From NCBI GenBank assembly GCA_964642545.1, contig CAZXQU010000005.1, forward strand, positions 1,669-65,668: DNA of 64,000 nucleotides, given 5' to 3'. A model generated the notes under the pieces. The model was not told the origin of the DNA. It was given only the letters and a program-made list of their open reading frames with translations, and searched no databases. The stretch's first letter is position 1. Each line of letters starts with the position of its first letter. Both the position numbers and the translations under genes were made by a program. Below, one piece after another: positions 4,127-60,612 of the stretch. The DNA is from an uncultured Prolixibacteraceae bacterium. GTDB lineage: Bacteria; Bacteroidota; Bacteroidia; Bacteroidales; FEN-979.

Positions 4127-4174
4127 AATAGTGAAAATGGTGAAATAGCGAAATGCGAAAAGCGAAAAACAAAA
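4113..4174. repeat. 7-9 nt periodic array, 8 units ending in GAAA (gtaggaaa tggtgaaa tagtgaaa atggtgaaa tagcgaaa tgcgaaa agcgaaa aacaaaa)
   Basis: Read directly. Contains the gldF stop (4124-4126) and the gldG ATG (4153) plus its first codons (MRKAKNK). Confidence 0.8.
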
Positions 4175-19515: not shown

Positions 19516-21291
19516 ATGAGTACTACCGTAACTGTCGGACTTGGAAGCTGCGGAATTGCTGCCGGCGCTAATAAAACCTATGAAAAGATCAAGGCCCTGA
19601 AGGAGAGCGAAAACCTCGACTTTGATCTCAAGAAAACTAGTTGCATCGGGATGTGCTACCGCGAACCTCTGGTAGAGATTGTTGACGATACCGGAACCTA
19701 TATTTATGGAGATGTAAATGCCGAGCGTGCAATCGAAGTCATTGAGAAACATGTCACCCAGCACGACCCGATTCGGGATTATATCGTATACACCGACCTT
19801 TTTGATGCACCCGAGAATAGCTTCATGAACTCACAGGTAAAGATCGTGTTGCGAAACTGTGGCTATATGGACCCTGAGTCGATTGATGAATACGAAGCCC
19901 GCGACGGATACAAGGCAATCAAAAAGATCACAGTGGAGAAGATTCCTGCCGATCAGGTCATCGAAACGATACTCAAATCGGGTCTTCGTGGCCGCGGTGG
20001 TGGTGGATTCCCTACTGGGCTGAAGTGGAAGTTTGCCAGAGCGAATAAATCCGATGAGAAATATGTGATTTGTAATGCCGACGAGGGCGACCCCGGAGCC
20101 TTTATGGATCGCAGCATCCTTGAAGGCGACCCGCACTCGGTTTTGGAAGGGATGATCATCGCAGCTTATAGCATTGGAGCCACAGGCGGGGTCATCTACT
20201 GCCGAGCCGAATACCCACTGGCAATCAAACGCCTCAATATCGCACTGGCTCAGGCCCGTAAACGGGGATACCTCGGGAAAGAGATTCTCGGCATCAAGGA
20301 TTTCAATTTCGATATTTATATCAAGGAGGGAGCCGGAGCATTTGTTTGCGGAGAAGAGACTGCCCTTATCGCCTCCGTTGAAGGAGAACGAGGGATGCCT
20401 CGTAAGCGGCCGCCATTTCCTGCCGAATCGGGATTGTGGCGTAAACCTACCAACATCAATAACGTAGAGACCTTAAACAACATCCCCTGGATTGTTTTGA
20501 ACGGAGCTGAAGCCTTTGCCAAATACGGGACAGAGAAGAGTAAGGGAACAAAAGTATTCGCCCTCGCCGGGAAGGTCAGGAATTCGGGATTGGTAGAGGT
20601 GCCAATGGGTATCACCATCAACGAAGTGATCATGAAACTCGGTGGTGGGATCAAGAACGACAAAAAGTTCAAGGCGGTTCAGTTGGGCGGTCCTTCGGGA
20701 GGCTGTATCCCACAGTATCTTTCAGAGACTATAGTGGATTACGACTCGGTAAATGCTACCGGGGCGATCATGGGATCAGGCGGGATGGTTGTGATGGACG
20801 AAAGTACCTGCATGGTCGATGTGGCTAAATTTTTCCTCGATTTCACCTGTAAAGAGTCTTGTGGAAAGTGTACTTTCTGCCGGGTTGGAACGGTAAGGAT
20901 GCTGGAAATCCTCGAACGCATCACCAACGGCGAAGGGCGCGAAGGGGATATAGAAAAGCTTGAGGAACTGGCATATGAGATCAAGGATAACTCTCTGTGC
21001 GGGCTCGGTCAAACAGCGCCTAATCCTGTACTCACTACCATCAAGTACTTCAGAGATGAATATGAAGCGCACATTGTCCATAAAAAATGCCCCGCGAAAG
21101 TGTGCCGTCCATTGCTGACTTACACCGTTGATCAGGAGAAATGTACCGGTTGCATGGTTTGTTTGAAAAACTGTCCGGCCAACGCCATTACAGGAGAGCG
21201 CAAGCAACCACACCTCATCAACCAGGATCTCTGCACTCAGTGCGGCGTGTGTTATACAAAATGTAAGTTCGACTCGATTATCCTGACATAA
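19516..21291 (+). CDS. NuoF/HydB-like NAD(H)- and FMN-binding subunit with N-terminal thioredoxin-like 2Fe-2S domain and C-terminal 2x[4Fe-4S] ferredoxin extension
   Basis: GLRGRGGGGFPTGLKWKF, ICNADEGDPGAFMDR and ESCGKCTFCR (N3 cluster), followed by CTGCMVCLKNCP...CTQCGVCYTKC. Confidence 0.9.
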   Translation: MSTTVTVGLGSCGIAAGANKTYEKIKALKESENLDFDLKKTSCIGMCYREPLVEIVDDTGTYIYGDVNAERAIEVIEKHVTQHDPIRDYIVYTDLFDAPENSFMNSQVKIVLRNCGYMDPESIDEYEARDGYKAIKKITVEKIPADQVIETILKSGLRGRGGGGFPTGLKWKFARANKSDEKYVICNADEGDPGAFMDRSILEGDPHSVLEGMIIAAYSIGATGGVIYCRAEYPLAIKRLNIALAQARKRGYLGKEILGIKDFNFDIYIKEGAGAFVCGEETALIASVEGERGMPRKRPPFPAESGLWRKPTNINNVETLNNIPWIVLNGAEAFAKYGTEKSKGTKVFALAGKVRNSGLVEVPMGITINEVIMKLGGGIKNDKKFKAVQLGGPSGGCIPQYLSETIVDYDSVNATGAIMGSGGMVVMDESTCMVDVAKFFLDFTCKESCGKCTFCRVGTVRMLEILERITNGEGREGDIEKLEELAYEIKDNSLCGLGQTAPNPVLTTIKYFRDEYEAHIVHKKCPAKVCRPLLTYTVDQEKCTGCMVCLKNCPANAITGERKQPHLINQDLCTQCGVCYTKCKFDSIILT

Positions 21292-21350
21292 CCCCTCCCC
21301 AACCCTCCCCTAAAGGGGAGGGAGTAAGTCCCCTTTAGGGGATTTAGGGG
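21290..21350. repeat. 61-nt double-hairpin REP-like element, copy A
   Basis: aacccctccccaaccctcccctaaaggggagggagtaagtcccctttaggggatttagggg. Stems are ccctcccc/ggggaggg (loop taaa) and tcccc/gggga (loop ttta). 59 of 61 positions match copy B at 42451-42511. Confidence 0.85.
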
Positions 21351-21387
21351 CAAAAAGAAACCACAAAACATCAAAAAAATCATTGTA

Positions 21388-24300: not shown

Positions 24301-25101
24301 GAAGAGTACAACAATGAGTTGAACGGGATTATCCTCTATTCTGAAAAGGAGGTTTCCGGCAATGGCGCCATCGCCCTGATGAATTTGGCTATGATCACCG
24401 GGAAACTTGGAAAAACCGCCAACGGGTTGATTGTCCTGAAAGAGAAGAATAACGCACAGGGGCTGTTCGACATGGGTATCAACCGGAAGTATGGCGTAGG
24501 GGGCAGGAGCCTGACTGATACAGCCTACCTGAAACACCTCATGGAAGCCTGGAAGGTTGATTCAATACCGGGTCCTGATCTTGTATGCCTCAAAACGAAC
24601 CTCACGCTAGGGAAGATCAAAAACATCTTTATCTTTGGGGAAGATCCCGTGGGATGCGACATTACCGGATCCTATTCCACATTGATTGAACAAATCCCGT
24701 TCAAAGTAGTTCAGGATTATTTCATGACGGATACGGCGAAGATGGCCGACCTGATTCTGCCAGCTTCATTCCCAACGGAAATTGGGGGCACCTTCTCCAA
24801 TACACAGAAGGTAATCCTGGAGTTTGACAAGGTTTTGCCTTCCCGTTTGGCGATGGATTCCATTCAGCAGCTCATCAAGACCCTGAAACGTTTCGGGTTG
24901 AATGGAGTGGAGAGCAGGGAGGATGTTTTCTCTGAGATCATCCAGCTGCTGCCGCAAACGGAGGAGGAGATGCCGGTTGAGAAACTCTCGCTGACGTACA
25001 GCGTTGACGATAATCCCAACCGTGCCTTTAACTTCGGATGCGACTACCTTGTGAAGCGATTTGAAGAGGAGTTTGAAAACCGAATGAAAAATGGAAATTA
25101 G
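21388..25101 (+). CDS. 1237-aa fusion subunit: N-terminal plant-type 2Fe-2S, then a GltD/NfnB-like FeS + FAD/NAD(P)H module, then NuoG/FdhA-type FeS cluster domains, then a truncated degenerate molybdopterin-oxidoreductase-like domain
   Basis: LNIILDGKIV..IEIPTLC..SCFVCVV. CPAGVDVQGYI..ETNPLPAICGRVCVRPCEKEC. KVAVIGAGPGGLSVGY...AVVGGGNTAMDC. CILCSRCVRIC, CESCGMCISTCP, CNYCSIGCSL. No Cys/Sec-His active-site motif and no C-terminal molybdopterin-binding barrel. Confidence 0.85.
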   Translation: MSEQSLNIILDGKIVKGTPGETILQLATRNGIEIPTLCNDNRLEPYSSCFVCVVAVEGMRGHQPSCSTRITEGMKITTFNESIRKSRKMALELMLSNHYADCIGPCKQTCPAGVDVQGYISLIEKGNYSDAIALIKETNPLPAICGRVCVRPCEKECRRNLLDEGSPVGIDYLKRFAADWDLASPDKFVPDIKPSTGKKVAVIGAGPGGLSVGYFMQIQGHQVDIFEAAPHPGGWLRYGIPEYRLPNDILDQEVKNITDLGVQIFYNKKLGENLSYKEIAEKYDATVLTIGSQIGTGVGCEGDDAGNVFSGIDFLKNMEVTEQHYDFSGKTIAVVGGGNTAMDCCRTSIRCHADKVYVIYRRTEKEMPANPIEIHESKLEGVEYLFLTLPQKINKNAKGEVETVTCIRMELGEPDASGRRRPVPIEGSEFDIKVDYILAAIGQKTDVNCIDDINTTTSTGELKINKWGDIDADRNTLQTGIPSVFAAGDGVTGPATIIEAIAQARVAAHSANQYLMGEEITPGNKPFTSKRENFKKQVKEDFLGAFDSQIREEMPVLDADQRMNFDEVELGYAGEEVALHETQRCLECGCNAFFDCDLQQYSTDYNADQKGFAGAYKEYQVDFRHPYIEIDNNKCILCSRCVRICREVVGANALGLVNRGFETYVSPSMGDSLQDTYCESCGMCISTCPTGAISENVLFKPGPVRTTAAETICNYCSIGCSLNLNHLNGFVMNVTGTTGLVNEKGNICRFPRFGYSYLNDRNRIISPMKRVNRKFEKITFEEAFRIMFEKIRSVDPDDNVFFAGARLTNEELYLVQKLARAGAKTGNIGSFHYLSRWQAYRMDESMNTSFGEIDQASKIFLVGSEINRDNAVAGFMVSNARAMKHIPVVLVTTREENAMAHKVDKIIEVKSYYYFTKAVNHFLLTNKMENTLFLRDRVDGLSEYKEQMATEDYPALLANAGITAEVVKNFAEEYNNELNGIILYSEKEVSGNGAIALMNLAMITGKLGKTANGLIVLKEKNNAQGLFDMGINRKYGVGGRSLTDTAYLKHLMEAWKVDSIPGPDLVCLKTNLTLGKIKNIFIFGEDPVGCDITGSYSTLIEQIPFKVVQDYFMTDTAKMADLILPASFPTEIGGTFSNTQKVILEFDKVLPSRLAMDSIQQLIKTLKRFGLNGVESREDVFSEIIQLLPQTEEEMPVEKLSLTYSVDDNPNRAFNFGCDYLVKRFEEEFENRMKNGN

Positions 25102-25134
25102 GAAATTAGGAAACTAGGAAATTAGGAAAATAGG
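25093..25134. repeat. 8-nt array, 5 units (ggaaatta ggaaatta ggaaacta ggaaatta ggaaaata)
   Basis: Read directly. Contains the last two codons and the TAG stop (25099-25101) of the 1237-aa gene. Confidence 0.85.
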
Positions 25135-25149
25135 TTATTTAAGTTTTAC

Positions 25150-25178
25150 ATGAAACCTGAAACCCTGAAACCTGAAAC
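25150..25178. repeat. 7-8 nt array, 4 units (atgaaac ctgaaac cctgaaac ctgaaac)
   Basis: Read directly, 10 nt upstream of the rubrerythrin-like ATG. Confidence 0.8.
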
Positions 25179-28987: not shown

Positions 28988-29551
28988 ATGAAAACAACAA
29001 TTCTGGAGCCGGGTAAATTTTATCACATTTATAATCGGGCCAAAAACGGGAACCCATTATTCCCCGAAGACGAAGACATCCAGTTCTTCCTGAAACTCTA
29101 CAAAACACACATCGTCCCTGTTGCGGAGACTTGGGCATACTGTATCCTCGACGACCATGTCCATTTTCTGGTTAGATTAAAAGAGGATCTGAATGGCAAT
29201 GCATACAAACCATTTGCGTTGCTCTTCAACTCCTACGCTAAGGGCTATCACAAGAAAAACGGAAGTGAGGGAAAACTTTTCAAATTCAAACTCAAGCGTG
29301 TTGAGATCCACAGAGAAACGGTCTTACGGGATGTGATCCGTTACATCAACCAAAATGCCCGCAAACATGGGTTGGTTGAGGATTGTTCCCGGTACAGGTA
29401 CTCCTCCTTTCGCGCTACTGTCACCACCTGGCCTACTTTGATTCCTAAGGAAGAGATTCTCAGGCGATTTGGCAATAGGGAGATGTTATCTCATATCCTG
29501 GCCGAACCAGTGAAGGAGAAAGGGTTGAAGATGTACCTGCTTGAAGAATGA
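28988..29551 (+). CDS. HUH/Y1 transposase of the IS200/IS605 TnpA - REP-associated tyrosine transposase (RAYT) type
   Basis: GKFYHIYNRAKNGNPLF, HUH motif DDHVHFLV, and catalytic-Tyr helix VIRYINQNARKHGLV. Confidence 0.8.
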   Translation: MKTTILEPGKFYHIYNRAKNGNPLFPEDEDIQFFLKLYKTHIVPVAETWAYCILDDHVHFLVRLKEDLNGNAYKPFALLFNSYAKGYHKKNGSEGKLFKFKLKRVEIHRETVLRDVIRYINQNARKHGLVEDCSRYRYSSFRATVTTWPTLIPKEEILRRFGNREMLSHILAEPVKEKGLKMYLLEE

Positions 29552-29570
29552 CGAATTACGAATTACGAAT
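29543..29570. repeat. Heptamer array, 4 units (gaagaat gacgaat tacgaat tacgaat)
   Basis: Read directly. Contains the transposase TGA stop (29549-29551). The same word family occurs at 508-549 and, as reverse complement, at 37181-37208. Confidence 0.8.
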
Positions 29571-29751: not shown

Positions 29752-32469
29752 TTAGTTGTTTATGAGTTTTATAGCGGTTTGATACAGTGAAGTAGTGATG
29801 GAAAAAATGTAAAGTCCTGTGGCGAATCCCGAAAGGTCAACCGGGTAAATATTATCTCCCGGAACTCCCGATATTGCCTTGGTAAAAAGATCCTTTCCGG
29901 ATGCCTGATACAGGCTTAGGGTACCAGTGAAGTCCGTTTCGCTGTGGTATATTACTTCGTAATTCCCATCTCCCAGGTTTCTCACTACCAAGGGCTCCTC
30001 CTTGTTTGAGGGTTGTTCCTCCCTCCCCTCAATAAATTCGGCTGTAAACTTACAGGCTGATGCAAAACGGATCCACAACAAGGAGTTTGTCTCATCCGGA
30101 TAATACTCCAGAATATTTCCGGATGTAGGCACGAACTCACTTGGATAGGATGAATAGAACCCCACCCAACCCGAATCGCTTACATAACCCGAATGAAGCA
30201 TATCAGATTCGATCTGGTAGCATACATCCATCCGATGGCTGCAAATAATGTAGTTTTGATCAATTGTCCTAAGGGAATCTCCATGTTCCAGGAAAAACAG
30301 GGATGGATTGATGAAATCGACCTTAACAAGGTTTAGGGTGCCATTCCCCTGGATTGGCCCCTGAAAACCACTTGCCGTTGCAAGGACTGTTACCATGACG
30401 GAGTCCTGCTGAGTAAAAATCAGGTTCTGAAAAGTCCCATCCACAACCTGGATGGCATTGACAGATAATCCTGCATCCAGGGTGGTGACTTCGGGTGGTG
30501 TATCGTTAAACGGAAAAAGAACGGAAAGAAACTGAGTGTTCTCGATACTTTCTTTTTGTATAAGCATTTTACTGTAATATCGGTATTGATTGGTACCGGT
30601 GGCAAGGCTGTCAATAGCTGCTGAATAATTTGTTGCGCCGCCGGCTGAGATGGTATGCACAAGAAGTTGGGTTGAATCTCTTGACCAGATGCCCTGGTGG
30701 TTGGTAAAATCAGGGGTGAAAGCTCCTTCAGGAGTGCCGGAAATCCCCCCTTCAAGCCCGTTTCCCTGAAGCTGGAATGTGTATGTATTTGGGCTAACTG
30801 AAGTGATAAAATCGGCTACGATAATATAACGGTCCCTAACAAAGAAGCTCTTCCGGATGATATCAGCACCAAAATAGGCTGTCCGGATCTCTCCGTAATC
30901 GAGCTCGGGTGTATCAAAATAGTTCTCAATCCAGCAGGTGTTTGTTGCAATACTCACCGCTTCACCCACCGGAGGCAGTGGCCCGAATCCGTTCACCAGT
31001 ATCAGTGAGTGGTTGGAGGCGTTGTTCACGGCCGATGATTCCTGGTATCCGGGATATCCGGGATCCACTGCAAGGAGTTCTCCATTGGCCATCAGCGAGA
31101 AACTGCTGGCATCCCCCTGGTGATGGGCTTTGGCGCCGGATAATGCGATACCATGTTTCCCGATGAAATGCATAAATAGGGCATCGGGATCATGTGACGA
31201 CCGAAAAATGAGGCTGCCGGCTTCGGGGAGCGCCCTGAAAAGGGTGTCGGGGAAGAGGCCCTCCTCCACATTCGTGCTGATATATTGCGTACGCCACATC
31301 ACATCTGTAGGGGGGAAGTGTGGATTGGGAATATTAAACCGGCTGTTGCCTGAAAGAGTGGTGATGCTGGTTCCAAACCCGATCGGACTGTCATGGATTG
31401 CGGGAGAGCTTCCGTCGGGCATACGGATCTGGATCATCCATTCGTAGAGGTTAGCGTAATTGGGGTCATACCATGGATTGCGGATATTCCTTGTCACCAT
31501 ATTGAATGTCATGGGATAAGTGGCATCCGGGAGGAAGTTCCAGAAAGCGCGGATAAAGGGAAAAGCATTCTCGAACCCATATTCAAAATAGGCTGGTCCT
31601 TCAGCATATCCTGCGATCGTATCAGGTTCGGAAACCCTTGGGTAGACTCCATTTTCCCGCCAGAGAGTGTTATCCAGGTTCCACAATCCGGCATCGATCC
31701 AGTTTTGCGGCTGGTAATCGGGATCGCTGCTTTCGTTGTCGTTCAGCACAATTGCTGCCAGGCCAAGTGCCGAAGCGGTCATGATGCTATGGTTGTTGAA
31801 CTGGAATTCGAAAAACTTGAACTGCCAGATGAGAACCGTATAGGTCGCCATCGCCCGGTTATACAAATGGGCTGAAAACTCAATCAACGAATCCTTTGCC
31901 AACTGCAGACTGTCAACTGCCAACTGTTGTCCCATCAGCAGATCGTAGGCGATGAGGTAGTTAATCAACTCCTTCGACCGGTGTTGCCACTCCTGGTAGA
32001 AGATCCAGCCCGACTGGAATCCGACAACCGTGTTGATCTCCTCAAGAAGCTGTTTACTTTTCGCTGTTAGTTGTTCACGTTCGGTTGGGGTCAGTGGAAT
32101 AATGGAGCTGGATGAAGGCTTTCTGTCCATCAGTGCAGCAAATGCTGCCTCTTTGGCGATCGTTGACCGGGTGAACCGTTCACCGTTGGTTGTGTTCCCT
32201 GATGGAATGTCGCTGTTCGCATGACTCCATACCAGTTCATAAATGGAATAGATTTTCGGATCTGTCAGAGTGTTTTTGATTACCTCTATCTGAGTGGTAT
32301 CAAGTAAGGTGCGCGGAAAGGTCAGGTCGGCACCGGGAGGATTCCAGGAGCCCTGCGATAGAGAAGTCAGTGGGGTTGCCAGGACTAAAAATAAGGCAGT
32401 ATAGGTCACCCATCTCTTTAAATCAGTTGTGGTTGATTGTATTCTTCCGGAGATTGAGAGAAGTTGCAT
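29752..32469 (-). CDS. Heparinase II/III-like (polysaccharide lyase-like) secreted protein with T9SS C-terminal sorting domain
   Basis: Signal peptide. Central HHQGDASSFSLMANGELLAVDPGYPGY (Hepar_II_III pattern). The last 80 or so aa (...GTLSLYQASGKDLF...GLYIFSITTS..IKLINN) look like a T9SS CTD. Confidence 0.7.
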   Translation of the reverse strand: MQLLSISGRIQSTTTDLKRWVTYTALFLVLATPLTSLSQGSWNPPGADLTFPRTLLDTTQIEVIKNTLTDPKIYSIYELVWSHANSDIPSGNTTNGERFTRSTIAKEAAFAALMDRKPSSSSIIPLTPTEREQLTAKSKQLLEEINTVVGFQSGWIFYQEWQHRSKELINYLIAYDLLMGQQLAVDSLQLAKDSLIEFSAHLYNRAMATYTVLIWQFKFFEFQFNNHSIMTASALGLAAIVLNDNESSDPDYQPQNWIDAGLWNLDNTLWRENGVYPRVSEPDTIAGYAEGPAYFEYGFENAFPFIRAFWNFLPDATYPMTFNMVTRNIRNPWYDPNYANLYEWMIQIRMPDGSSPAIHDSPIGFGTSITTLSGNSRFNIPNPHFPPTDVMWRTQYISTNVEEGLFPDTLFRALPEAGSLIFRSSHDPDALFMHFIGKHGIALSGAKAHHQGDASSFSLMANGELLAVDPGYPGYQESSAVNNASNHSLILVNGFGPLPPVGEAVSIATNTCWIENYFDTPELDYGEIRTAYFGADIIRKSFFVRDRYIIVADFITSVSPNTYTFQLQGNGLEGGISGTPEGAFTPDFTNHQGIWSRDSTQLLVHTISAGGATNYSAAIDSLATGTNQYRYYSKMLIQKESIENTQFLSVLFPFNDTPPEVTTLDAGLSVNAIQVVDGTFQNLIFTQQDSVMVTVLATASGFQGPIQGNGTLNLVKVDFINPSLFFLEHGDSLRTIDQNYIICSHRMDVCYQIESDMLHSGYVSDSGWVGFYSSYPSEFVPTSGNILEYYPDETNSLLWIRFASACKFTAEFIEGREEQPSNKEEPLVVRNLGDGNYEVIYHSETDFTGTLSLYQASGKDLFTKAISGVPGDNIYPVDLSGFATGLYIFSITTSLYQTAIKLINN

Positions 32470-34319
32470 TATTTCTCTGATCGTATCATATTCCTGGGAT
32501 CCAGTACCCGCTCCAACTCCTCCTTCGACATCAACTTCTTTTTTAGGACGAGATCATACACACTGTCTTCTGTCTCAAGTGCCTCTTTTGCTATCAGCGA
32601 ACTATTCTCGTAGCCAATATAAGGGTTGAGCGCAGTAACCAGTCCGATGCTGTTTTCGACCATCTTGCGGCAGTGCTCAGCATTTGCTGTGATGCCGTCA
32701 ATGCACCGGTACCGAAGTGAGTCCATGCCGTTCTTCAGCATCTCGATCGATTCGAGCAGGCTTTGCACGATCACCGGCTCCATCACGTTGAGTTCAAGCT
32801 GGCCGGCTTCAGCGGCAAAACTAACTGTTAGGTCGTTCCCAATCACTTTGAAGGCGATCTGGTTCACGACTTCAGGGATAACGGGATTAACTTTGCCGGG
32901 CATTATGGTAGAACCCGGCTGCATGGGAGGGAGGTTAATCTCATTCAAGCCGGCACGGGGCCCTGAGGAGAGTAGCCTGAGATCATTACAGATCTTACTA
33001 AGTTTGATTGCCAGACGTTTTACAGCGGATGAATAAATTACGTATTGCCCGGTATCCTGGGTCGCTTCAACAAGGTCAACCGCGAGCACGATGTCCAGTC
33101 CGGTTATCTTTCGAAGATATTCCACCACTTTCCCGCTGTATTGAGGGTTGGCATTCAGTCCGGTACCAATCGCAGTTCCCCCCATGTTGATCTCCAGAAA
33201 GAGGTTTGCATTCTCGTTCAGTCGTTCAATCTCTTCCCCCAGGGTGGTAGCGAACGCCCCAAAGGTTTGTCCCAGTGTCATGGGTACCGCATCCTGCAAC
33301 TGGGTTCTTCCCATTTTGATAATAAGGGAGAATTCGACCGATTTTTTGCGGAAGGAGTCGATGAGCTGTTTGAGTACATTCACCAGCTTTTCATTACTCC
33401 GGAAAAGAGCGAGCTGGATAGCAGTAGGATAGACATCGTTTGTCGATTGCGACAGGTTAACGTGGCTGTTGGGATGACAGTACGTGTATTCGCCTTTTTT
33501 ATGCCCGAGTAACTCGAGTGCACGATTGGCTATCACCTCGTTGGCATTCATGTTTGTGGAGGTGCCGGCTCCTCCCTGAATCATGTCCACTACAAAGTGG
33601 TTCAAGAAACGGCTGTCGATAATCTCAAGGCAGGTGCGAATGATGGCATCTGCCATATCTTTTGGAAGCAGTCCAAGGTCATAATTGGCTTCTGCAGCTG
33701 CCATTTTCACAATTGCCAGGGATTTCACCAGTTCGGGGTAAGAATTGAGCCTGACGCCGCTGATATTGAAATTCTCCAGAGCCCGGAGTGTTTGAATGCC
33801 ATAGTAGTATTCATAAGGAACCTCGCGTTCGCCAAGCAAATCATGTTCAGTGCGGGTTCGGCCCGATTCATACTGGGCCGAATCGTCGGAGCTGAGATGA
33901 ACAGCATAACGCAATCTCCGGGAAATAACCCTTGAGATGTTCGACATCACCTTGACAGCAATTGCCCCGTGATGAGAAAAAAAGTCAATCCCCAGGCAAA
34001 GTGTTGTGCTCTCTTCCAGGGCACGCGCCGATGTTGAGTGCGGGTATGTGTCGAGGAGAGACCCTTCACCCAGAAAGTCATATTCGCGGAAGGAGGTGAT
34101 GAACTTCTCCTTTCCAGAAGTTGTCGCCTTAAACAATTCGATCTTTCCGCTCACGACAAAAAAGATCTCTTTTCGGGGTTCGTTTCTTTTGAAAAGGAAC
34201 TCACCGGGTTCAAATGTCTTGAGTGTAACCAAATCGGCTGTGACTGCAATCTCTTCATCCGTGAGATCACGAAAAAGTTCGACTTGGTGCAAAAATTCTT
34301 TGATCTTCAGAAAATCCAT
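32469..34319 (-). CDS. aspA: Aspartate ammonia-lyase with an N-terminal cyclic-nucleotide-binding-like (CAP effector) domain fusion
   Basis: From residue 155 or so it is colinear with E. coli AspA as I remember it (EHDLLGEREVP..YYG.QTLRA.ENF; GRTQLQDAVPMTLGQ; KICNDLRLLSSGPRAGLNEINLP; GSTIMPGKVNP). Residues 8-135 have the cNMP-binding fold pattern. Confidence 0.9.
   Translation of the reverse strand: MDFLKIKEFLHQVELFRDLTDEEIAVTADLVTLKTFEPGEFLFKRNEPRKEIFFVVSGKIELFKATTSGKEKFITSFREYDFLGEGSLLDTYPHSTSARALEESTTLCLGIDFFSHHGAIAVKVMSNISRVISRRLRYAVHLSSDDSAQYESGRTRTEHDLLGEREVPYEYYYGIQTLRALENFNISGVRLNSYPELVKSLAIVKMAAAEANYDLGLLPKDMADAIIRTCLEIIDSRFLNHFVVDMIQGGAGTSTNMNANEVIANRALELLGHKKGEYTYCHPNSHVNLSQSTNDVYPTAIQLALFRSNEKLVNVLKQLIDSFRKKSVEFSLIIKMGRTQLQDAVPMTLGQTFGAFATTLGEEIERLNENANLFLEINMGGTAIGTGLNANPQYSGKVVEYLRKITGLDIVLAVDLVEATQDTGQYVIYSSAVKRLAIKLSKICNDLRLLSSGPRAGLNEINLPPMQPGSTIMPGKVNPVIPEVVNQIAFKVIGNDLTVSFAAEAGQLELNVMEPVIVQSLLESIEMLKNGMDSLRYRCIDGITANAEHCRKMVENSIGLVTALNPYIGYENSSLIAKEALETEDSVYDLVLKKKLMSKEELERVLDPRNMIRSEK
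33915..34319 (-). other. cNMP-binding-like domain of the AspA fusion
   Basis: LFRDLTDEEI...FEPGEFLFKRNEPRKEIFFVVSGKIELFK...DFLGEGSLLDTYPHSTSARA. The phosphate-binding-cassette Arg is replaced by His. Confidence 0.7.
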
Positions 34320-34348
34320 ATGGCAGCTGATTTTACACTACGAAGGTA

Positions 34349-34356
34349 CAAAGTTA
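34349..34356 (-). promoter_or_regulatory. -7 box TAacTTTG for the aspA fusion
   Basis: Forward caaagtta, 30 nt upstream of the ATG at 34317-34319. Confidence 0.45.
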
Positions 34357-34451
34357 AACTGCGTTTTATCCAAAGTTTTAAACATTCCACTTACAAACGT
34401 TCCGATTATCGTAGTTTTACAGAAACCAGCAACCAAAAATCAAAAACCATT

Positions 34452-35852
34452 ATGGGCGGCATTTTCGGAACAATTTCCACAACAGATTGTGTAAACGATC
34501 TCTATTACGGAACGGATTATAATTCACACCTCGGAACCCGTCGTGGAGGGATGGCAGTTTATTCAGGCAGTGGATTTACCAAAGCAATTCATAACATCGA
34601 AAATTCTTATTTCAGGACCAAGTTCGAATCAGACCTTCCAACGTTTATTGGAAAAAGCGGGATCGGGGTGATCAGCGATACCGAATCGCAACCAATCATC
34701 ATACGGTCACACCTGGGAGAGTTTGCTATCGTTACTGTAAGCAAGATCAAAAACATCGAAGAGCTAACTTCAAGGGCTTTGAAGCGACATCAGCATTTTT
34801 CTGAAACCGGAACCATCGGCACCAGTCCCACTGAACTGGTGGCCATTCTGATCAATGAAGAGGAATCTATTGAGAAAGGGATTGAGAATGTTTTCGAAAA
34901 GGTTCAGGGATCCTGCACGATGCTCCTCCTCACCAATAAAGGAATCTTTGCAGCGCGTGATAAACTGGGACGAACTCCTATCATCCTGGGAAAGAAAGAG
35001 GGGGCCTACGCAATCAGTTCGGAGAGCAGTTCTTTTGATAACATTGGCTTTGAGATCGAAAAGTATATTGGACCCGGAGAGATCCTGTTTATCACAGCTG
35101 ATGGAGTAGAACAGTGCAGGAAACCAAATGATAAGATGCAGATCTGTGCATTTCTCTGGGTCTACTATGGCTATCCCAGTTCCTGCTACGAAGGGATCAA
35201 TGTGGAGGCCTGCCGGTACAGATGTGGTGCGGCCCTGGCTAAGCGTGATAAAGAGGTGGTGGATTTTGTGTCGGGCGTTCCTGATTCGGGCATCGCACAT
35301 GCCATCGGCTATTCGAATGAAAAGCAAATCCCTTATAAGCGGGCCTATGTGAAATATACTCCCACCTGGCCACGTAGCTTCATGCCTCAGAATCAGGAGA
35401 TGCGGGATCTCGTTGCCCGGATGAAACTGATCCCTGTCAAGGAGCTGATTGAGGGAAACCGGATCGTTTTCTGTGATGACTCAATCGTTCGGGGTACCCA
35501 ACTTAAAGATACCGTTAAAATACTCTATGACTGTGGTGCAAAGGAGATCCATATCAGGCCTGCGTGCCCAACACTCATCTACCCCTGCGAGTTCCTCAAC
35601 TTCTCAACCTCCCGCACAACGTTCGACCTCGCCGGACGAAGAGCCATTGACCAATTGGGGGAAGGCGAAGAGCACCTCAACGAGTATGCCACACCTGATA
35701 CAGACCGCTATTATGCCATGATAGAAAAGATTCGTGAAAGTCTCGGGGTTACAACACTCCAATATCAGCACCTTAATGATCTGATTGATGCAATTGGTTT
35801 GCCGAAAGAGCAGGTTTGCACACATTGCTGGGACGGAAGTTCCTATTTTTAA
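34452..35852 (+). CDS. Amidophosphoribosyltransferase-like protein (PurF fold) lacking the N-terminal Cys nucleophile
   Basis: Starts MGGIFGTIS (codon 2 is GGC, Gly). PRTase motif VFCDDSIVRGTQ. Gn-AT II-like N-domain. The 604-aa ORF-track version carries a spurious 5' extension antisense to aspA. Confidence 0.8.
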   Translation: MGGIFGTISTTDCVNDLYYGTDYNSHLGTRRGGMAVYSGSGFTKAIHNIENSYFRTKFESDLPTFIGKSGIGVISDTESQPIIIRSHLGEFAIVTVSKIKNIEELTSRALKRHQHFSETGTIGTSPTELVAILINEEESIEKGIENVFEKVQGSCTMLLLTNKGIFAARDKLGRTPIILGKKEGAYAISSESSSFDNIGFEIEKYIGPGEILFITADGVEQCRKPNDKMQICAFLWVYYGYPSSCYEGINVEACRYRCGAALAKRDKEVVDFVSGVPDSGIAHAIGYSNEKQIPYKRAYVKYTPTWPRSFMPQNQEMRDLVARMKLIPVKELIEGNRIVFCDDSIVRGTQLKDTVKILYDCGAKEIHIRPACPTLIYPCEFLNFSTSRTTFDLAGRRAIDQLGEGEEHLNEYATPDTDRYYAMIEKIRESLGVTTLQYQHLNDLIDAIGLPKEQVCTHCWDGSSYF

Positions 35853-35910
35853 ATAGCGAAATGGTGAACCGGAGCGAAGCGGAGTTCGGCATAGCCAAAT
35901 AGCGAAATAG
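35851..35910. repeat. Composite repeat: aaatagcgaaatggt + 25-nt hairpin core gaaccggagcgaagcggagttcggc (35866-35890) + atagcc + aaatagcgaaatag
   Basis: Read directly. The core is identical to 51205-51229. Direct repeats of aaatagcgaaat flank the core. Begins inside the purF-like stop codon. Confidence 0.85.
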
Positions 35911-35952
35911 TTTTTTTCGTGTCTTCGTGTCTTTGTGGTGAAGTCTTTGTTT

Positions 35953-37148
35953 ATGTGCAGGATTCAAATAGTATTCTTCTTTCTTTGTCTTCCGCTTTTG
36001 TTATCTGCCCAGGAGAAGGGGGCCATACAGGGCCGGGTGACAGATGCTGCCACTGGAGAACCGATGCCCTATGCACAGGCTGCATCGGAAAGAACCACCC
36101 TGGGAACGGTTACCAATGAGGATGGAATTTTCAGATTGAAGTTGCCTGATGCCGGATGCCCGGATGCCAATTATCCGGATAGCCTGATGGTTTCGTTTCT
36201 GGGATTTCAGACGGAAAAACTTCAGGTTTCCTCAGTTGATACAGGAACACTGGAGATATTCCTGATCCCTGTTTCTCTCAATCTTCGGGAGGTAGAAATC
36301 ATTGCCTTGTCGTCCCAGGAAGTGCTTCGTAGAGCACTCGACAGCATCTCTGTCAACTATGGGGTTGATCCCGTCATCCTGACTGCTTTTATCCGGACAC
36401 AAAAGATGGTCAATAAAAACTGGCCGAATATACGGAAGCCATTGTGGAGAACCTGATAGACGGATACTATTTATACAAAACCGGAGAGGTAGGAGCGAGC
36501 GCACGATGCCTGGGGTGTAATTTCGTCAGGGATATTGCTGAGTTTCCCTACGAGACAGTACTTGATGAACGGGATAAGAAGCACTATACGTTAAAAATGG
36601 AGGAATTGGTTAACCCCGAAGGAGGCAAGATCTACCGGATCAGGTTTGATCAGAATGAGAAAACGACCAAAACATTATACCAGGGAGAGATCCTGATTGA
36701 TTCCCGTGATTTTGCCATCCTCCAAATCACCTACAAGCCAAGCTACAAAGCATACGATAGTTACGAAAGGAAAAAATACAACCACGTCTGGTACCTGAAC
36801 AGCCAACCCGGCTGGATCCAGGAAATGCCTTTTGGGGAAACTACTGTGACTTATTCTAAACGAGGAGATTATTGGTGTTTGAATACCATTCGTCAACAGT
36901 ATTGGGTCACCTATAACCATCCGCAAAACAGTCAGCGTATCAGCTATGGTTACAAAAACGAAGTTGTCGTCACCAATATCACCCGTGATCCAGTGGTCAT
37001 CCGGGCTTTTGAAGGCGATAAATCGATGGGGGTCAACCAACGCTGGGATGAAGTTGTCGGCGAAACCGATGAAGCTTTCTGGGAAAATTTCAACTACCTG
37101 CCAATTGAGGCGACACTTCAGAAAGAGCTTAACAAGTTGGACAAGTGA
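35953..37148 (+). pseudogene. CarboxypepD_reg-domain protein split by a frameshift in an A5 run (36415-36419)
   Basis: ORFs 35935-36456 and 36444-37148 are adjacent frames. Adding one A to aataaaaac joins ...QKMVNKKLAEYTEAIVENLIDGYY... Signal peptide MCRIQIVFFFLCLPLLLSAQE, then GRVTDAATGEPMPYA. Confidence 0.6.
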
Positions 37149-37180
37149 AACAGGTTGTTGATGCTGAAGGGGATTCTTTT

Positions 37181-37208
37181 AATTCGTAATTCGACATTCG
37201 TAATTCTA
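37181..37208. repeat. Heptamer array, 4 units (aattcgt aattcga cattcgt aattcta)
   Basis: Read directly. Reverse-complement word family of 29543-29570. Contains the stop codon (37206-37208) of the minus-strand phosphatase gene. Confidence 0.8.
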
Positions 37209-41829: not shown

Positions 41830-42488
41830 AGACAAAATTCATCAAACGACCTTTCATCTGTCGCTTTTTCAGCAGGGAGCATCTTATCTGTGATGTCCCA
41901 ACCACGGAAAAAGAGATTTTCCTGACCTTCGACGATGGTCCGGTTCCCGAAATTACTCCAGTGATTCTGGATATCCTGAAAGAGCGGAATGTGAAAGCCA
42001 CATTTTTTTGTGTTGGGGCCAATGTGGCTGCAAATCCCGAACTCTTTGAACGACTCATTGGAGATGGTCATGCAGTTGGAAATCACACCTATCATCACCT
42101 GCATGGGTGGAAGAGTCCGCCCGGTGCCTATGTAGAAGATGTTACACGTTGTGAGGCCCTGTTTCAGACAAACCTGTTTCGTCCGCCATACGGAAAGTTT
42201 ACCCCATCACAATACCTGCTTTTAAAGGACAAATACCTCTTTGTGATGTGGAGTGTCCTAACCCACGATTACAGCCGTCGGGTGAAGCCGGAACAATGCC
42301 TCGACATCGCGATTCAGAATACCCGTCCCGGCTCCATCGTCCTCTTCCACGACAGCATCAAGGCATCAGAGAACGTGTTGTATGCTCTCCCCAGATTTCT
42401 GGATCATTTTCTGGAGAGGGGATATAGGTTTAAGGTGCTGGAGGGCCGACAACCCCTCCCCGGCCCTCCCCTAAAGGGGAGGGAGTAA
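41826..42488 (+). CDS. Polysaccharide deacetylase (CE4/NodB family)
   Basis: IFLTFDDGP...TFFCVG...GNHTYHH motifs. TTG start overlapping the upstream TGA. The last 12 or so codons (…PLPGPPLKGRE*) and the stop are supplied by REP-like copy B. Confidence 0.8.
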   Translation: MKTKFIKRPFICRFFSREHLICDVPTTEKEIFLTFDDGPVPEITPVILDILKERNVKATFFCVGANVAANPELFERLIGDGHAVGNHTYHHLHGWKSPPGAYVEDVTRCEALFQTNLFRPPYGKFTPSQYLLLKDKYLFVMWSVLTHDYSRRVKPEQCLDIAIQNTRPGSIVLFHDSIKASENVLYALPRFLDHFLERGYRFKVLEGRQPLPGPPLKGRE

Positions 42489-42511
42489 GTCCCCTTTAGG
42501 GGATTTAGGGG
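42451..42511. repeat. 61-nt double-hairpin REP-like element, copy B
   Basis: aacccctccccggccctcccctaaaggggagggagtaagtcccctttaggggatttagggg. Differs from copy A only at 2 adjacent positions (gg versus aa). Confidence 0.85.
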
Positions 42512-42527
42512 TTAAATGGACATTCCC

Positions 42528-44036: not shown

Positions 44037-44067
44037 TGGGGTCATGAAGTCATTTGGCAAAATAAAT

Positions 44068-44128
44068 ACTTCGTCCTTCGTACTTCTAACTTACTTCTAA
44101 CTTCTAACCTCTAACTTCTGACTTCTAA
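44068..44128. repeat. Heptamer array, 8 or so units of the CTTCNNN type (acttcgtc cttcgta cttctaa ctta cttctaa cttctaa cctctaa cttctga cttctaa)
   Basis: Read directly. Contains the stop (44125-44127) of the minus-strand gene. Related to the array at 48657-48705. Confidence 0.85.
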
Positions 44129-47772: not shown

Positions 47773-47812
47773 ATTTTACATTTTACCATTTTACCATTTT
47801 ACCATTTTACAT
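47773..47812. repeat. 8-nt array, 5 units (attttaca ttttacca ttttacca ttttacca ttttacat)
   Basis: Read directly. The reverse complement (ggtaaaat) resembles the GTGAAAT family at 4113-4174. Its last unit merges into the ispE -7 box. Confidence 0.85.
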
Positions 47813-47815
47813 TTG
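47808..47815 (+). promoter_or_regulatory. -7 box TAcaTTTG for ispE
   Basis: Exact motif 11 nt upstream of the GTG start at 47826, which implies a very short leader. Confidence 0.35.
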
Positions 47816-47825
47816 ACTTGACTCC

Positions 47826-48638
47826 GTGATCTGTTTTCCCAACGCTAAAATAAACCTCGGCCTTCATGTCACAGAAAGGAGGCCGGATGGCTTTCATACG
47901 ATTGAAACTATATTCTACCCTGTCGAAATGTGTGATGTGTTGGAGATCGTTCCTTCTGAAAATGGGGGCGTTGAATTTACCTGCACAGGGATTTCCATTC
48001 CTGGAGATCCGGAATCAAATCTGGTATTGAAGGCTCTTGGTCTGATTAGAGATACGCGATATGCGATGCGCGATACCCAAACAGGCATCGTTGATCTCGA
48101 ATCGCAAATCGCAGATCCCGGATCCCACATCCATTTACATAAAGTTATCCCTACCGGCGCCGGGCTGGGTGGTGGCTCTTCTGATGCAGCCTATTCCTTA
48201 AAATTGATGAACGATTTATGGAAGTTGGAGTTATCGGTTACGCAGTTACAGGATATCGCCAGACAACTCGGCAGTGACTGCGCATTTTTCATTGAGAACA
48301 AGCCGGTGTTTGCCTCAGGCCGGGGCGATCAGTTCGAACCAATTGACCTGGACCTCTCAGAATACAAAATAGTGGTTGTTGCTCCTCCGGTTCATGTAAG
48401 GACACAGGAGGCTTATGGGATGGTAACTCCCCGGAAACCCCGGCACTCCCTTAAAGAGATCGTAAGGCTGCCAGCAGATCGCTGGAGGAGATTACTCTCC
48501 AACGATTTTGAGGAGCCGGTCATGAAAAAGTATCCCGTCATCCGGGAAGTCAAAGAGGAACTTTATCGTCGGGGGGCCATTTATGCAGCCATGAGCGGAA
48601 GCGGGTCGGCGGTATTTGGGATCTTTAGCAAGCACTAA
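47826..48638 (+). CDS. ispE: 4-diphosphocytidyl-2-C-methyl-D-erythritol kinase
   Basis: FPNAKINLGLHV...KVIPTGAGLGGGSSDAA...MSGSGSAVFG (GHMP kinase motifs). GTG start. Confidence 0.9.
   Translation: MICFPNAKINLGLHVTERRPDGFHTIETIFYPVEMCDVLEIVPSENGGVEFTCTGISIPGDPESNLVLKALGLIRDTRYAMRDTQTGIVDLESQIADPGSHIHLHKVIPTGAGLGGGSSDAAYSLKLMNDLWKLELSVTQLQDIARQLGSDCAFFIENKPVFASGRGDQFEPIDLDLSEYKIVVVAPPVHVRTQEAYGMVTPRKPRHSLKEIVRLPADRWRRLLSNDFEEPVMKKYPVIREVKEELYRRGAIYAAMSGSGSAVFGIFSKH
48051..48131. repeat. In-frame heptamer arrays inside ispE (gatacgc gatatgc gatgcgc gataccc ... tcgaatc gcaaatc gcagatc ccggatc ccacatc)
   Basis: Read directly. Encodes DTRYAMRDTQTGIVDLESQIADPGSH, located between NLVLKALGLI and IHLHKVIP. 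Confidence 0.8.
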
Positions 48639-48656: not shown

Positions 48657-48705
48657 CTTCGTCCCTCTTCCCTCTTCCCTCTTCCCTCGTCCTTCGTCCT
48701 ATCTC
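48657..48705. repeat. Heptamer array, 7 units (cttcgtc cctcttc cctcttc cctcttc cctcgtc cttcgtc ctatctc)
   Basis: Read directly, between convergent ispE and the permease gene. Contains the permease stop (48699-48701). Confidence 0.85.
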
Positions 48706-51042: not shown

Positions 51043-52245
51043 ATGCCAGATGCCTTCATCAACCCAAACCCGTTTCTTCTTGCACTATTTATCCTCTATG
51101 GATTTTGCTTCCTGGTGCAGATGGTATTTTACTGGGCAGTCTTCTTCAGAGTTGGGATAAAAGATAAGAGATCCGCGATTCGCGATATGCAATCCTCGGA
51201 TCCCGAACCGGAGCGAAGCGGAGTTCGGCGAAGCCAATCCCGGATCCCGGATCCCGTAATCGGTGTTTCCGTCGTCATCTGTGCCCATAACGAGTATCAA
51301 CAGTTGCAAAGTAACCTGCCGGGGATCCTCGAGCAGGACTACCCAATGTATGAAGTGGTGGTAGTGGATCATGCTTCGGATGATGATACGTCGTTTTTAC
51401 TCTCGGATCTGAGTGAGAAATATAAACACCTTAAAGTTGTCTCTATTCAACGTGACCTCAACTTTTTCACCGGGAAGAAGTTCCCCCTCTCCATCGGAAT
51501 TAAATCTGCAAAGCATGAGATCATTCTCCTCACGGATGCCGACTGCCGCCCTGCCGGGAACCAATGGGTGCGACTGATGCAGGAAGCTTTTACCGATGAC
51601 AAAGAGATCATCCTTGGTTACGGGCCTTATGAGATGCGTAAAGGCCTCTTAAATGCACTGATCCGTTTCGAAACCATTCAGGTGGCTATCCAGTACCTCT
51701 CTTTTGCGTTAGCTGGAATCCCATACATGGGAGTAGGGAGGAATCTGGCATACAGAAAAAGACTCTTTTATCAGGAGAAAGGATTCATCTCACACTATCG
51801 GATCAACAGTGGTGATGACGACCTGTTTATCAACCGCGTAGCCCATAAGAAAAATACTGGAGTGCAGCGAAATCCAGGATCCTTCACCTATTCTGAACCA
51901 AAAGTATCGTTGGGAAAGTGGTTCACCCAGAAAAGACGTCATATGACAACCGGCTCGCATTATAGATTTATACACAAGCTCCTGCTCGGTTTATATGGGT
52001 TCACCCAACTACTTTTTTGGGTACTGCTTGTTCTGTTGCTTGCCTGGAAATTCGCCTGGGTATTTGTTTTAAGTGTACTTTTGCTGCTATGGGTCAGCCA
52101 ATATATTGTGATTGGCAGATGCATGAAGAGGCTTCAGGAAAAGAGGCTGATTGCCTGGATTCCTCTACTTGAGTTGATGACACTCACTCTCCAGATTGTG
52201 ATCACAGGGACCAATTTCATTGTCAAACCCCATAAATGGAAGTAG
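51043..52245 (+). CDS. Membrane-anchored glycosyltransferase family 2
   Basis: N-terminal TM segment, VSVVICAHNEYQQL...VVVDHASDDDT...LTDADC, and C-terminal TM bundle. A repeat-derived linker lies between the TM segment and the catalytic domain. Confidence 0.8.
   Translation: MPDAFINPNPFLLALFILYGFCFLVQMVFYWAVFFRVGIKDKRSAIRDMQSSDPEPERSGVRRSQSRIPDPVIGVSVVICAHNEYQQLQSNLPGILEQDYPMYEVVVVDHASDDDTSFLLSDLSEKYKHLKVVSIQRDLNFFTGKKFPLSIGIKSAKHEIILLTDADCRPAGNQWVRLMQEAFTDDKEIILGYGPYEMRKGLLNALIRFETIQVAIQYLSFALAGIPYMGVGRNLAYRKRLFYQEKGFISHYRINSGDDDLFINRVAHKKNTGVQRNPGSFTYSEPKVSLGKWFTQKRRHMTTGSHYRFIHKLLLGLYGFTQLLFWVLLVLLLAWKFAWVFVLSVLLLLWVSQYIVIGRCMKRLQEKRLIAWIPLLELMTLTLQIVITGTNFIVKPHKWK
51170..51261. repeat. 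In-frame composite repeat inside the GT2 gene: heptamers (gatccgc gattcgc gatatgc aatcctc ggatccc) + 25-nt hairpin core (51205-51229) + gaagccaatc + cggatcc cggatcc cgtaatc
   Basis: Read directly. The core is identical to 35866-35890. Encodes about RSAIRDMQSSDPEPERSGVRRSQSRIPDPVIG. Confidence 0.85.
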
Positions 52246-60552: not shown

Positions 60553-60612
60553 GGAGGTAGGGAAGAAGGAAAGTAGGTATGAGTATATGAGGGTATGTGT
60601 GTATGAGGGAAA
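60547..60612. repeat. Loosely 7-nt periodic purine-rich array (aagtagg gaggtag ggaagaa ggaaagt aggtatg agtatat gagggta tgtgtgt atgaggg)
   Basis: Read directly. Contains the A2M TAG stop (60550-60552) and the candidate pbpC start codons. Periodicity is weaker than in the other arrays. Confidence 0.55.

Follow-up and report, generated by a model that had tools for sequence, protein, structure and literature searches.

The 64,000-nt stretch analysed here (the window), from an uncultured Prolixibacteraceae bacterium (contig CAZXQU010000005.1), carries two copies of a short sequence element, each set within an array of 7- or 8-nt words. One copy lies directly behind purF and the other inside a gene for a family-2 glycosyltransferase (GT2). 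Both belong to a family of discrete 30-nt units that are present or absent at otherwise matching sites across many genomes of Bacteroidia. The features at the two loci are as follows:

34452-35852, + strand: purF (amidophosphoribosyltransferase); homologues of 466 aa reach up to 96% identity at 100% coverage, and the host array of copy 1 adjoins the purF stop codon
35851-35865, + strand: left part of the copy 1 host array, 8-nt words AAATAGCG AAATGGT.., beginning within the purF stop codon
35866-35898, + strand: element copy 1, the 33-nt conserved block GAA-CCGGAGCGAAGCGGAGTTCGGCATAGCC-AA
35899-35910, + strand: right part of the copy 1 host array, ATAGCGAA ATAG, in register after removal of 30 nt
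51043-52245, + strand: GT2 gene, whose product has an N-terminal transmembrane helix and a catalytic domain joined by a hypervariable, array-encoded linker
51163-51204, + strand: copy 2 host heptamer array, N-terminal side, GATAAGA GATCCGC GATTCGC GATATGC AATCCTC GGATCCC, aligning collinearly with L043 and L042, whose arrays are empty (L numbers denote collected sequences other than the window)
51205-51237, + strand: element copy 2, GAA-CCGGAGCGAAGCGGAGTTCGGCGAAGCC-AA, with the net insertion at 51208-51237
51238-51255, + strand: copy 2 host heptamer array, C-terminal side, TCCC GGATCCC GGATCCC

A first-pass annotation of the window had drawn attention to the 25-mer GAACCGGAGCGAAGCGGAGTTCGGC, which does occur as two exact copies, 35866-35890 and 51205-51229, both on the + strand; a window search allowing up to 3 mismatches returned no third match, with 0 expected from 100 dinucleotide shuffles. 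A repeat finder extended the identity between the copies to 33 nt (35866-35898 versus 51205-51237, 31/33 positions), the sole difference being two adjacent bases, ..GGC AT AGCCAA in copy 1 and ..GGC GA AGCCAA in copy 2. Copy 1 occupies the 101-nt spacer separating purF from the next gene, immediately 3′ of the purF stop codon (35850-35852), in the layout AAATAGCG AAATGGTG AA^..^ATAGCGAA ATAG, where carets mark junctions; its host words recur at 4118-4168 in the window. Since AA is common to both junctions, the boundary has two equivalent placements, and the net 30-nt insertion is 35869-35898 or, equivalently, 35867-35896. The 604-aa GTG-initiated open reading frame (ORF) listed for purF over-extends upstream (34038-34451), and homologues begin at 34452. 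Copy 2 lies within the GT2 ORF as GGATCCC GAA^..^TCCC GGATCCC GGATCCC, translated ..SSDPEPERSGVRRSQSRIPDP.., in a protein whose homologues carry Pfam PF00535/PF13641/PF13506/PF13632. As the annotation had proposed, this copy is an in-frame, translated linker insert (EPERSGVRRSQ) between the N-terminal hydrophobic helix and the catalytic domain, and both copies interrupt short-period arrays whose words resume in register on the far side. Orthologues lack the GT2 insert.

The central 21-mer was scanned against one genome per GTDB species, revealing 39 loci in these representatives, nearly all from Bacteroidales, Prolixibacteraceae, 'Prevotellaceae' or other Bacteroidia metagenome-assembled genomes (MAGs). 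Exact copies numbered up to 6 per MAG, with 5-6 in several, and the few matches in other phyla, which are without the 3′ part of the element, look like chance occurrences. A metagenome scan allowing the two commonest variants added at least 118 stretches. Copies collected at up to 6 mismatches to the 33-mer, in 1.1 Mb of sequence around the loci, numbered 178 and comprised 63 distinct sequence variants, with the 33-nt consensus GAA-CCGGAGCGAAGCGGAG(T/C)TCGGC(G/A)NAGCC-AA; the window copies are of the T variant, and the C variant is commoner among the metagenome matches listed. The 25-mer accordingly marks a large multi-genome family rather than two copies alone. Subfamilies are apparent within genomes, such as the G17T change common to 3/4 copies in L046. 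A sub-variant with a slippage-like internal duplication in the 3′ hairpin (..GGCGAAGCGAAGCGAGCCAA or ..GGCGAAGTGAAACGAGCCAA) was seen in the GAATGAG arrays of L047, L053, L069, L078, L097, L099, L100, L118 and L160. Five longer relatives keep the termini (AA)CCGR ... GAGCTCGR-CGAAGYCAA and have the centre swapped for other, longer hairpins. These measure 42-47 nt, with termini GAACCGR ... GAGCTCGRCGAAGYCAA (L030 300-400, L114, L058, L014 6200-6260 and L023); those of L030 and L114 adjoin an inverted copy of the 30-mer, and that of L058 lies in a host site of the kind used by the 30-mer. A literature search for the 15-mer of the element, on either strand, returned no paper containing the sequence. 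Rfam yielded no family in the window at the gathering score and none around copy 1 at E ≤ 10, ruling out a known RNA family as its identity. Viral carriage was rejected likewise, given 0 exact matches among IMG/VR viral contigs and only non-significant blastn matches to plasmid and phage records. The 30-nt element is widespread among uncultured Bacteroidia and apparently undescribed.

The unit is defined by a net insertion of 30 nt, AACCGGAGCGAAGCGGAG(Y)TCGGC(R)NAGCC or, equivalently, CCGG...GCCAA. Its length was measured at 26 copies in strict arrays by making deletions of variable length and scoring identity across the resulting junction. Removal of 30 nt restored array phase, with a mean cross-junction identity of 0.75, compared to at most 0.39 for deletions of 28, 29 or 31-36 nt; a secondary peak of 0.60 occurred at 37 nt, corresponding to 30 nt plus one heptamer. 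The dinucleotide AA stands both ahead of CCGG and at the end of the block, which leaves a two-base ambiguity in the boundaries; GATTTAC arrays, where the block terminates in ..GCCAT, point to either AACCGG..GCC or ACCGG..GCCA being the unit. Among 149 non-redundant copies, AACC is preceded by G in 77% and by C in 17%, and ..GCCA is followed by A (91%), then T/A (95%), then C/T (81%), indicating a target of roughly GAA^WY. The left flank reads NAA in all copies and there is no target duplication, as is characteristic of IS200/IS605-type insertion 3′ of a short target. The ends are identical to the base in more than 140 unrelated contexts, and there are no terminal inverted repeats, the element ends AACCGGAG.. 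and ..GGAGCCAA not being inverted repeats of each other. Non-array sites show no direct duplication beyond the common A/AA. The duplicated flanks that the first-pass annotation took as a mark of insertion are therefore the periodicity of the host array, and a target-site duplication, apparent only where the host is an array, was rejected.

Comparison of filled and empty sites was most extensive for GT2. Homologues are mostly 377 aa, with close relatives of 379-436 aa that owe their extra length to linkers made of translated arrays, e.g. DPGSRIPDP from (GGATCCC)n. The linkers of L040, L042 and L043 are without the insert, in answer to the orthologue comparison suggested by the annotation. L042 and L043 are collinear with the window gene at the DNA level, with arrays present and insert absent, L043 reading GGATCCC GGATCCC TTATCCC .. 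where the window reads GGATCCC GAA[30 nt]TCCC GGATCCC .., and L040, the closest relative (88.9% protein and 85.8% DNA identity outside the linker), is also empty. A more distant orthologue, L008 (76.5% DNA identity), carries the element opposite to the gene, reading GLASPNSASLRF; with respect to the GGATCCC word it is oriented as in the window, and the 56-nt surrounding block is identical to that of the window. The empty counterpart of the L008 site (GATCCGG GATCCGG GAT[30 nt]TCGG GATCCGC) is found in L040 (GATCCGG GATCCGG GATCCGG GATCCGA). On this evidence the filled state is polyphyletic, which would imply two independent insertions, or lateral replacement, into the same kind of array. An unchanged version of the window GT2 protein, with its insert, is present in 7 contigs from at least 4 independent samples, and the gene evidently works with the insert in place. 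We also observed that the array-built linker occurs in opposite orientations among close relatives (window 51163-51255, L040 10100-10190, L008 6850-6960), with (GGATCCC)n on the C-terminal side in the window, L042 and L043, and (GATCCGG)n on the N-terminal side in L040 and L008. The window linker scores 67 against the reverse complement of the L040 linker and 41 against its forward strand; the segment may have been inverted or regenerated within an intact gene.

At the purF spacer, all five orthologous loci (L162-L166, syntenic with the window, purF 89-96% identical) have an 8-nt array and 0/5 have the core. Their words vary (GTGATGGA, AAATGGTG and others), with L164 providing a near-perfect empty site, AAATGGTG AAATGGTG AAATGATG. 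The array starts exactly at the purF stop codon in 6/6 genomes (window 35850-35912 and L162-L166), and its words differ even where purF is 96% identical; the spacer arrays appear to turn over very fast, with their position conserved. Empty paralogues were sought by joining the flanks of filled sites and searching the collected DNA, which returned exact matches (0 mismatches) for L117 versus L055:2551 and within the L129 tandem repeat, and many that were near-exact. A Nudix-like protein provides a further case, in which ten extra codons (..NKE^PERSGVRQSQ^SFYLF..) are present in L014, L023, L032, L072, L108 and L110 and missing from L082, L105 and a second L072 copy; there is no array at this insertion site. 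At some sites one base beside the junction differs between the two states (empty GGAT, GCAT or GAGT versus filled GAA..AAT). If the 25-mer were ancestral sequence, only two copies would be expected, in orthologues carrying the segment with ordinary divergence; this is contradicted by the many copies and the empty orthologues. Taken together, the copies constitute a discrete 30-nt unit that has a defined target, makes no duplication, lacks inverted ends, is polymorphic for insertion and forms subfamilies within genomes.

The array words that host copies include GAAATAGC / GAAATGGT, GAATTAC, GATTTAC, GGATCCC, GAATTGA, GAATGAG, GAAATCC, GAAACCT, CCAATTA and GCATCCT, as well as words of 13-16-nt period, and in each case the array carries on in register beyond the insert. 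Strict arrays hold 18% of insertion sites, whereas random positions fall in them in 1.3% of cases and the full set of GAAWY sites from the same DNA in 2.9%; by a looser criterion, 41/145 sites are array-associated. The proposed association of the core with word arrays is therefore strong. Of the suggestion that it targets, or seeds, the arrays, the association stands and seeding does not: orthologous arrays exist without the element, which colonises arrays rather than seeding them. Nor are its flanks always arrays, since many copies lie in arrays and others at non-array sites where duplication is lacking. The element also occurs within palindromic repeats of 'Prevotellaceae' MAGs (GTCATTGCGAG..GCGAAGCAA^TCTC) and within TTGTTCATTTCTTTTG..CAAAAGAA^ATGAACAA hairpins, the palindrome arm being restored in both types on removal of 30 nt, and in unique intergenic DNA and coding sequence. 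Approximately one quarter of copies lie in long ORFs. Orientation shows no bias relative to genes, with 25 same and 17 opposite inside ORFs, and 18 and 12, respectively, between co-directional genes; single short loci contain copies in mixed orientation, and the one close inverted pair is in L012, with starts 78 nt apart. Copies have also been amplified with the host repeat, as in L083 3052-3250, where one array holds three copies, and in L129, where six copies recur every 172 nt in a tandem repeat whose filled and empty units lie side by side, such that passive amplification is possible after insertion. Copies adjacent to one another, or in successive words of one array, were noted in L104 6216-6285 and L156 4231-4310. 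Because 30 nt equals ten codons and most variants are stop-free, copies in genes survive as extra linker peptides. Six-frame freedom from stops was considered as a selected property and rejected: shuffles of matched composition likewise lack stops in 38-58% of cases, and at least one frame of window copy 1 contains a stop.

The first-pass annotation had described the core as a hairpin around GCGAAGC, closed by a GAAC/GTTC or CCGAAC/GTTCGG outer stem. The GCGAAGC centre is present; the outer stem is weak, and its CCGAAC arm occurs in the GGATCCC context only. The element reads AAC-CGGAG-CGAAG-CGGAG-CTCGG-CGNAG-CCAA, a run of CGNAG pentamers, with GCGAAGC at positions 9-15, GCGNAGC at 24-30 and, in the C variant, GCGGAGC at 14-20. 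The sequence can be drawn as a 6-bp stem interrupted by one bulge (CCG(G)AGC / GYTCGG) together with a GGC-GNA-GCC mini-hairpin, with energies no better than those of shuffled sequences. DNA fold energies for both loci and the core gave z = +0.1 to +1.4, and neither the reverse complement nor the longer relatives fold better than shuffles, such that the hairpin was rejected as a defining feature. The GNA-triloop mini-hairpins formed by d(GCGNAGC) are unusually stable, and nearest-neighbour models may under-score them. Among the most variable internal positions (7, 20, 26 and 27) are the N of two CGNAG units and a wobble position (G-T/G-C), although positions 4-24 are constrained by the search patterns and only 12 copies are unbiased there. 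These variable N positions and the hairpin-swapped longer relatives lend indirect support to a structure, and of the two the longer relatives seem the better evidence for a structural requirement. Adenine mutagenesis of the type found in diversity-generating retroelements was rejected by inspection as the source of the variable NN, because other A positions are invariant.

The many copies in many genomes, together with empty orthologous and paralogous sites, bear out the suggestion of a miniature mobile element of copy-and-paste type. In the account that we consider rather probable, the two copies in the window are members of a large Bacteroidia family of non-autonomous mobile elements of very small size. 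New copies would arise by copy-and-paste from master copies within each genome, in a reaction most likely catalysed in trans by a single-strand DNA enzyme of the HUH type, specific for sequence and structure and akin to IS200/IS605 TnpA or RAYT. Such an enzyme might recognise the imperfect stem-loop CCG(G)AGC-GAAGCGGA-GYTCGG, or the GCGNAGC mini-hairpins, as well as the tail CGNAGCCAA at the 3′ end; it would attach the element on the 3′ side of the short target GAA. A trans-acting HUH-type enzyme ranks first because of insertion 3′ of a motif, the lack of duplication and inverted repeats, the stem-loop with tail, and the resemblance of the CAA end to GAA; that particular assignment, drawn by analogy, is tentative and may well be wrong. 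The element behaves as selfish or neutral DNA, with no host function implied.

Several results weigh against this account. DNA and RNA hairpins are no stabler than dinucleotide shuffles on either strand, for the T or C variant (z -0.3 to +0.7), and the changes among the 12 unbiased copies are scattered, with none compensatory, albeit in a sample too small for covariation. The 8-14 kb of DNA examined around each copy yielded no mobilising gene. ORFs between inverted copies (L130 and L046) are housekeeping or capsule genes, and all-against-all clustering of 2,610 flanking ORFs revealed no transposase-like family, the clusters being AAA-ATPase-like, four-helix-bundle-like and similar proteins as judged by sequence, with no family scan. 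A crude HUH motif screen of the 1.1 Mb of flanks found a single Y1_Tnp gene, in L038, associated with different CCCCCGG hairpins. This RAYT-like Y1 gene (L038 1310-1755; PF01797, E = 7e-19) has its own CCCCCGG..CCGGGGG repeats, which bear no sequence relation to the 30-mer, and lies ~0.9 kb from a 30-mer copy. In addition, mixed orientation within loci is not predicted by a strictly lagging-strand-directed mechanism of the IS200/IS605 kind, and the one-base junction differences fit strict target choice and a process based on homology or microhomology alike.

Spread without a dedicated enzyme, through template switches during replication or through short-patch gene conversion from one slippage-prone repeat to another, is rather unlikely but survives best among the alternatives. 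Here, stable GCGNAGC mini-hairpins would stall synthesis, and the nascent strand would enter and leave the donor through microhomologies of 1-3 nt, GAA at the left end and AA(T/A) at the right. The strong link to tandem arrays and other repeats would follow from such a process, as would mixed orientations within a locus and the absence of a transposase-like gene from the flanks examined; the junctions fall on the only bases common to donors and recipients (AA on both sides), and the one-base junction changes from GGAT, GCAT or GAGT resemble a donor overwriting its target. However, microhomology of 2-3 nt should give ragged ends, whereas the ends are base-exact in more than 140 unrelated contexts. 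Insertion sites also include non-array sites and unique coding DNA with no nearby repeat, as in the Nudix-like gene, and the persistence of 30 near-unchanged nt across distant Bacteroidia is easier to reconcile with conserved recognition by a protein.

Alternatively, the element could be a functional cis-element under selection, however copied, such as a site for a DNA-binding protein or a small structured RNA signal. We regard this as improbable, although near-identical sequence across families and habitats would fit, many copies are close to gene starts or ends, and CGGAG, CGGAG and CGNAG begin at block positions 5, 15 and 25, a spacing of 10 nt or one helical turn. A purely functional role is unlikely because positional and orientation constraints are lacking: neither strand is preferred relative to genes, copies lie inside coding regions on either strand, and distances to starts and stops are not fixed. 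Moreover, close relatives are without the element at the same loci with nothing else changed, and Rfam offers no match. Growth in situ of a word array, (CGNAG)n or a repeated 10-mer, with convergent or ancestral window copies, can be practically dismissed: the core is internally periodic (CGGAG CGAAG CGGAG CTCGG CGNAG; CGAACCGGAG x2 by TRF), but the same 30 nt with the same ends recurs in over 140 contexts and many genomes, orthologous and paralogous sites are exactly empty, non-repetitive coding DNA is also occupied, and no partially grown intermediates were seen in arrays.

The remainder of the window is rich in 7-8-nt arrays that draw on a common vocabulary of words, located at 508-540, 4117-4176, 25086-25178, 29546-29570, 31900-31927, 37180-37206, 44067-44128, 47773-47814, 48051-48076, 48659-48699 and 60576-60649. 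Words recur across these loci, sometimes inverted, as for GAATTAC at 29546 and its complement at 37180, ACTGCCA at 31902 and 60617, and GAAATAGC/GAAATGGT at 4118 and 35851; most include GAA on one strand. The gene downstream of copy 1 is split into overlapping ORFs at 35935-36456 (173 aa) and 36444-37148 (234 aa) and holds a short TGCCGGA array at 36143-36168. Its orthologues in L162, L164 and L165 are single genes of 423-436 aa with a CarbopepD_reg_2 domain, and that in L166 is likewise split, which may reflect a frameshift or a variable gene. A further dispersed repeat occurs at 21290-21355 and 42451-42516, comprising 66 nt at 94% identity with two adjoining hairpins (CCCCTAAAGGGGAGGG / GTCCCCTTTAGGGGA); relatives with altered loop and stem are present in L119 and L125.

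If confirmed, these observations would add a second, ecologically dominant phylum to the cyanobacteria as a home of very small mobile repeats. The Bacteroidia case would be the cleaner one: its unit is exactly 30 nt, its target is defined, empty-site comparisons are numerous, and proteins carry in-frame insertions in either orientation. It offers a tractable system for how DNA too small for transposase-binding ends moves. For the annotation of Bacteroidia MAGs, the element is a source of spurious peptides (EPERSGVRRSQ, ASPNSASLRF), variable linkers and variable intergenic lengths, and it could be useful as a strain-level marker and for probing how arrays change. More speculatively, and with considerable doubt, this 30-nt element of CGNAG/GCGNAGC mini-hairpins might represent the smallest class of mobile DNA outside cyanobacteria, spread by an unrecognised enzyme or by hairpin-driven template switching, colonising GAA-punctuated Bacteroidia arrays and remodelling intergenic regions and protein linkers. 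Were that so, it could explain the origin and turnover of such arrays and of the small dispersed repeats (SDRs) of cyanobacteria.

Among known systems, two candidates were rejected. A transposable element of the miniature inverted-repeat type (MITE) dependent on a DDE transposase is inconsistent with the lack of terminal inverted repeats, the absence of duplication beyond A/AA and a length of 30 nt rather than the usual 70-300 bp; a CRISPR-like repeat-spacer unit is inconsistent with a constant 30-nt insert, varying flanks and no duplication outside arrays. Heptamer and octamer arrays (STRR, LSSR, TAACTGA repeats) are known in cyanobacteria, Beggiatoaceae and some Bacteroidetes, and resemble the hosts of many copies in being intergenic and beside start or stop codons (PMC4679880). 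They constitute the substrate and not the element, and no dispersed 30-nt insert is known from Bacteroidetes arrays. The element would thus be a kind of very small non-autonomous dispersed repeat, one that invades arrays of a type already described and that itself appears new.

In size and architecture, the closest counterparts would be the REP/REPIN sequences and their RAYT enzymes (TnpA_REP, Y1 HUH). The likeness extends to a 20-40-nt repeat with a conserved single-stranded tag and what may be an imperfect stem-loop, tens to hundreds of copies, subfamilies, non-autonomy, and the absence of inverted terminal repeats and target duplication (PMC3116915; PMC3733652). However, the tag, extragenic and doublet features fail. 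The consensus of the element is without a GTAG or CGTC tag on either strand (GTAG arises in the NN=GT variant only), copies are not confined to extragenic space, and they are mostly single units rather than inverted doublets. Furthermore, no flanking RAYT was seen in the 8-14 kb around each copy, the lone RAYT-like gene having other repeats, and exact insertion into tandem arrays is not known for REPs. IS200/IS605 elements and their PATE derivatives (reportedly, as for IS608 and ISDra2) also insert 3′ of a short target without duplication or terminal inverted repeats, have hairpin-containing ends, as the present element may, and have a right end in a similar short motif, comparable to the GAA target and CAA end here. 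To our knowledge, every described PATE is several times larger than this element. It has barely enough room for two subterminal hairpins, its two GCGNAGC mini-hairpins having no energy or covariation support, and it differs further in mixed orientation and in having no tnpA linked in the flanks.

The Rickettsia palindromic elements (RPE) of Ogata et al. 2000 are said to be selfish and to lie in frame inside genes without destroying them; they differ in reportedly being 100-150 bp, palindromic and restricted to Rickettsia, and are not known to be array-associated. In behaviour, the closest known family would be the SDR4/5/6 repeats of Nostoc and related cyanobacteria (Elhai et al. 2008), reportedly units of 21-27 nt that insert precisely and are nested in other repeats. 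SDR5, for example, sits between nucleotides 3 and 4 of HIP1 (PMC4390886). Both the SDRs and the present element are very small (21-27 nt versus 30 nt), lack coding capacity, occupy a precise position in a motif (here after GAA), are nested in repeats, show presence and absence at orthologous sites, and reside in genomes rich in heptamer arrays. The differences lie in phylum, in presumably unrelated sequence, and in the target, here GAAWY words rather than HIP1; the present element is, in addition, built of CGNAG/GCGNAGC motifs, lies in frame in genes and occurs in both orientations of one linker. Since the phylum differs, the SDRs, which match in behaviour, are best regarded as an analogue of the Bacteroidia element, rather than as a family to which it belongs.

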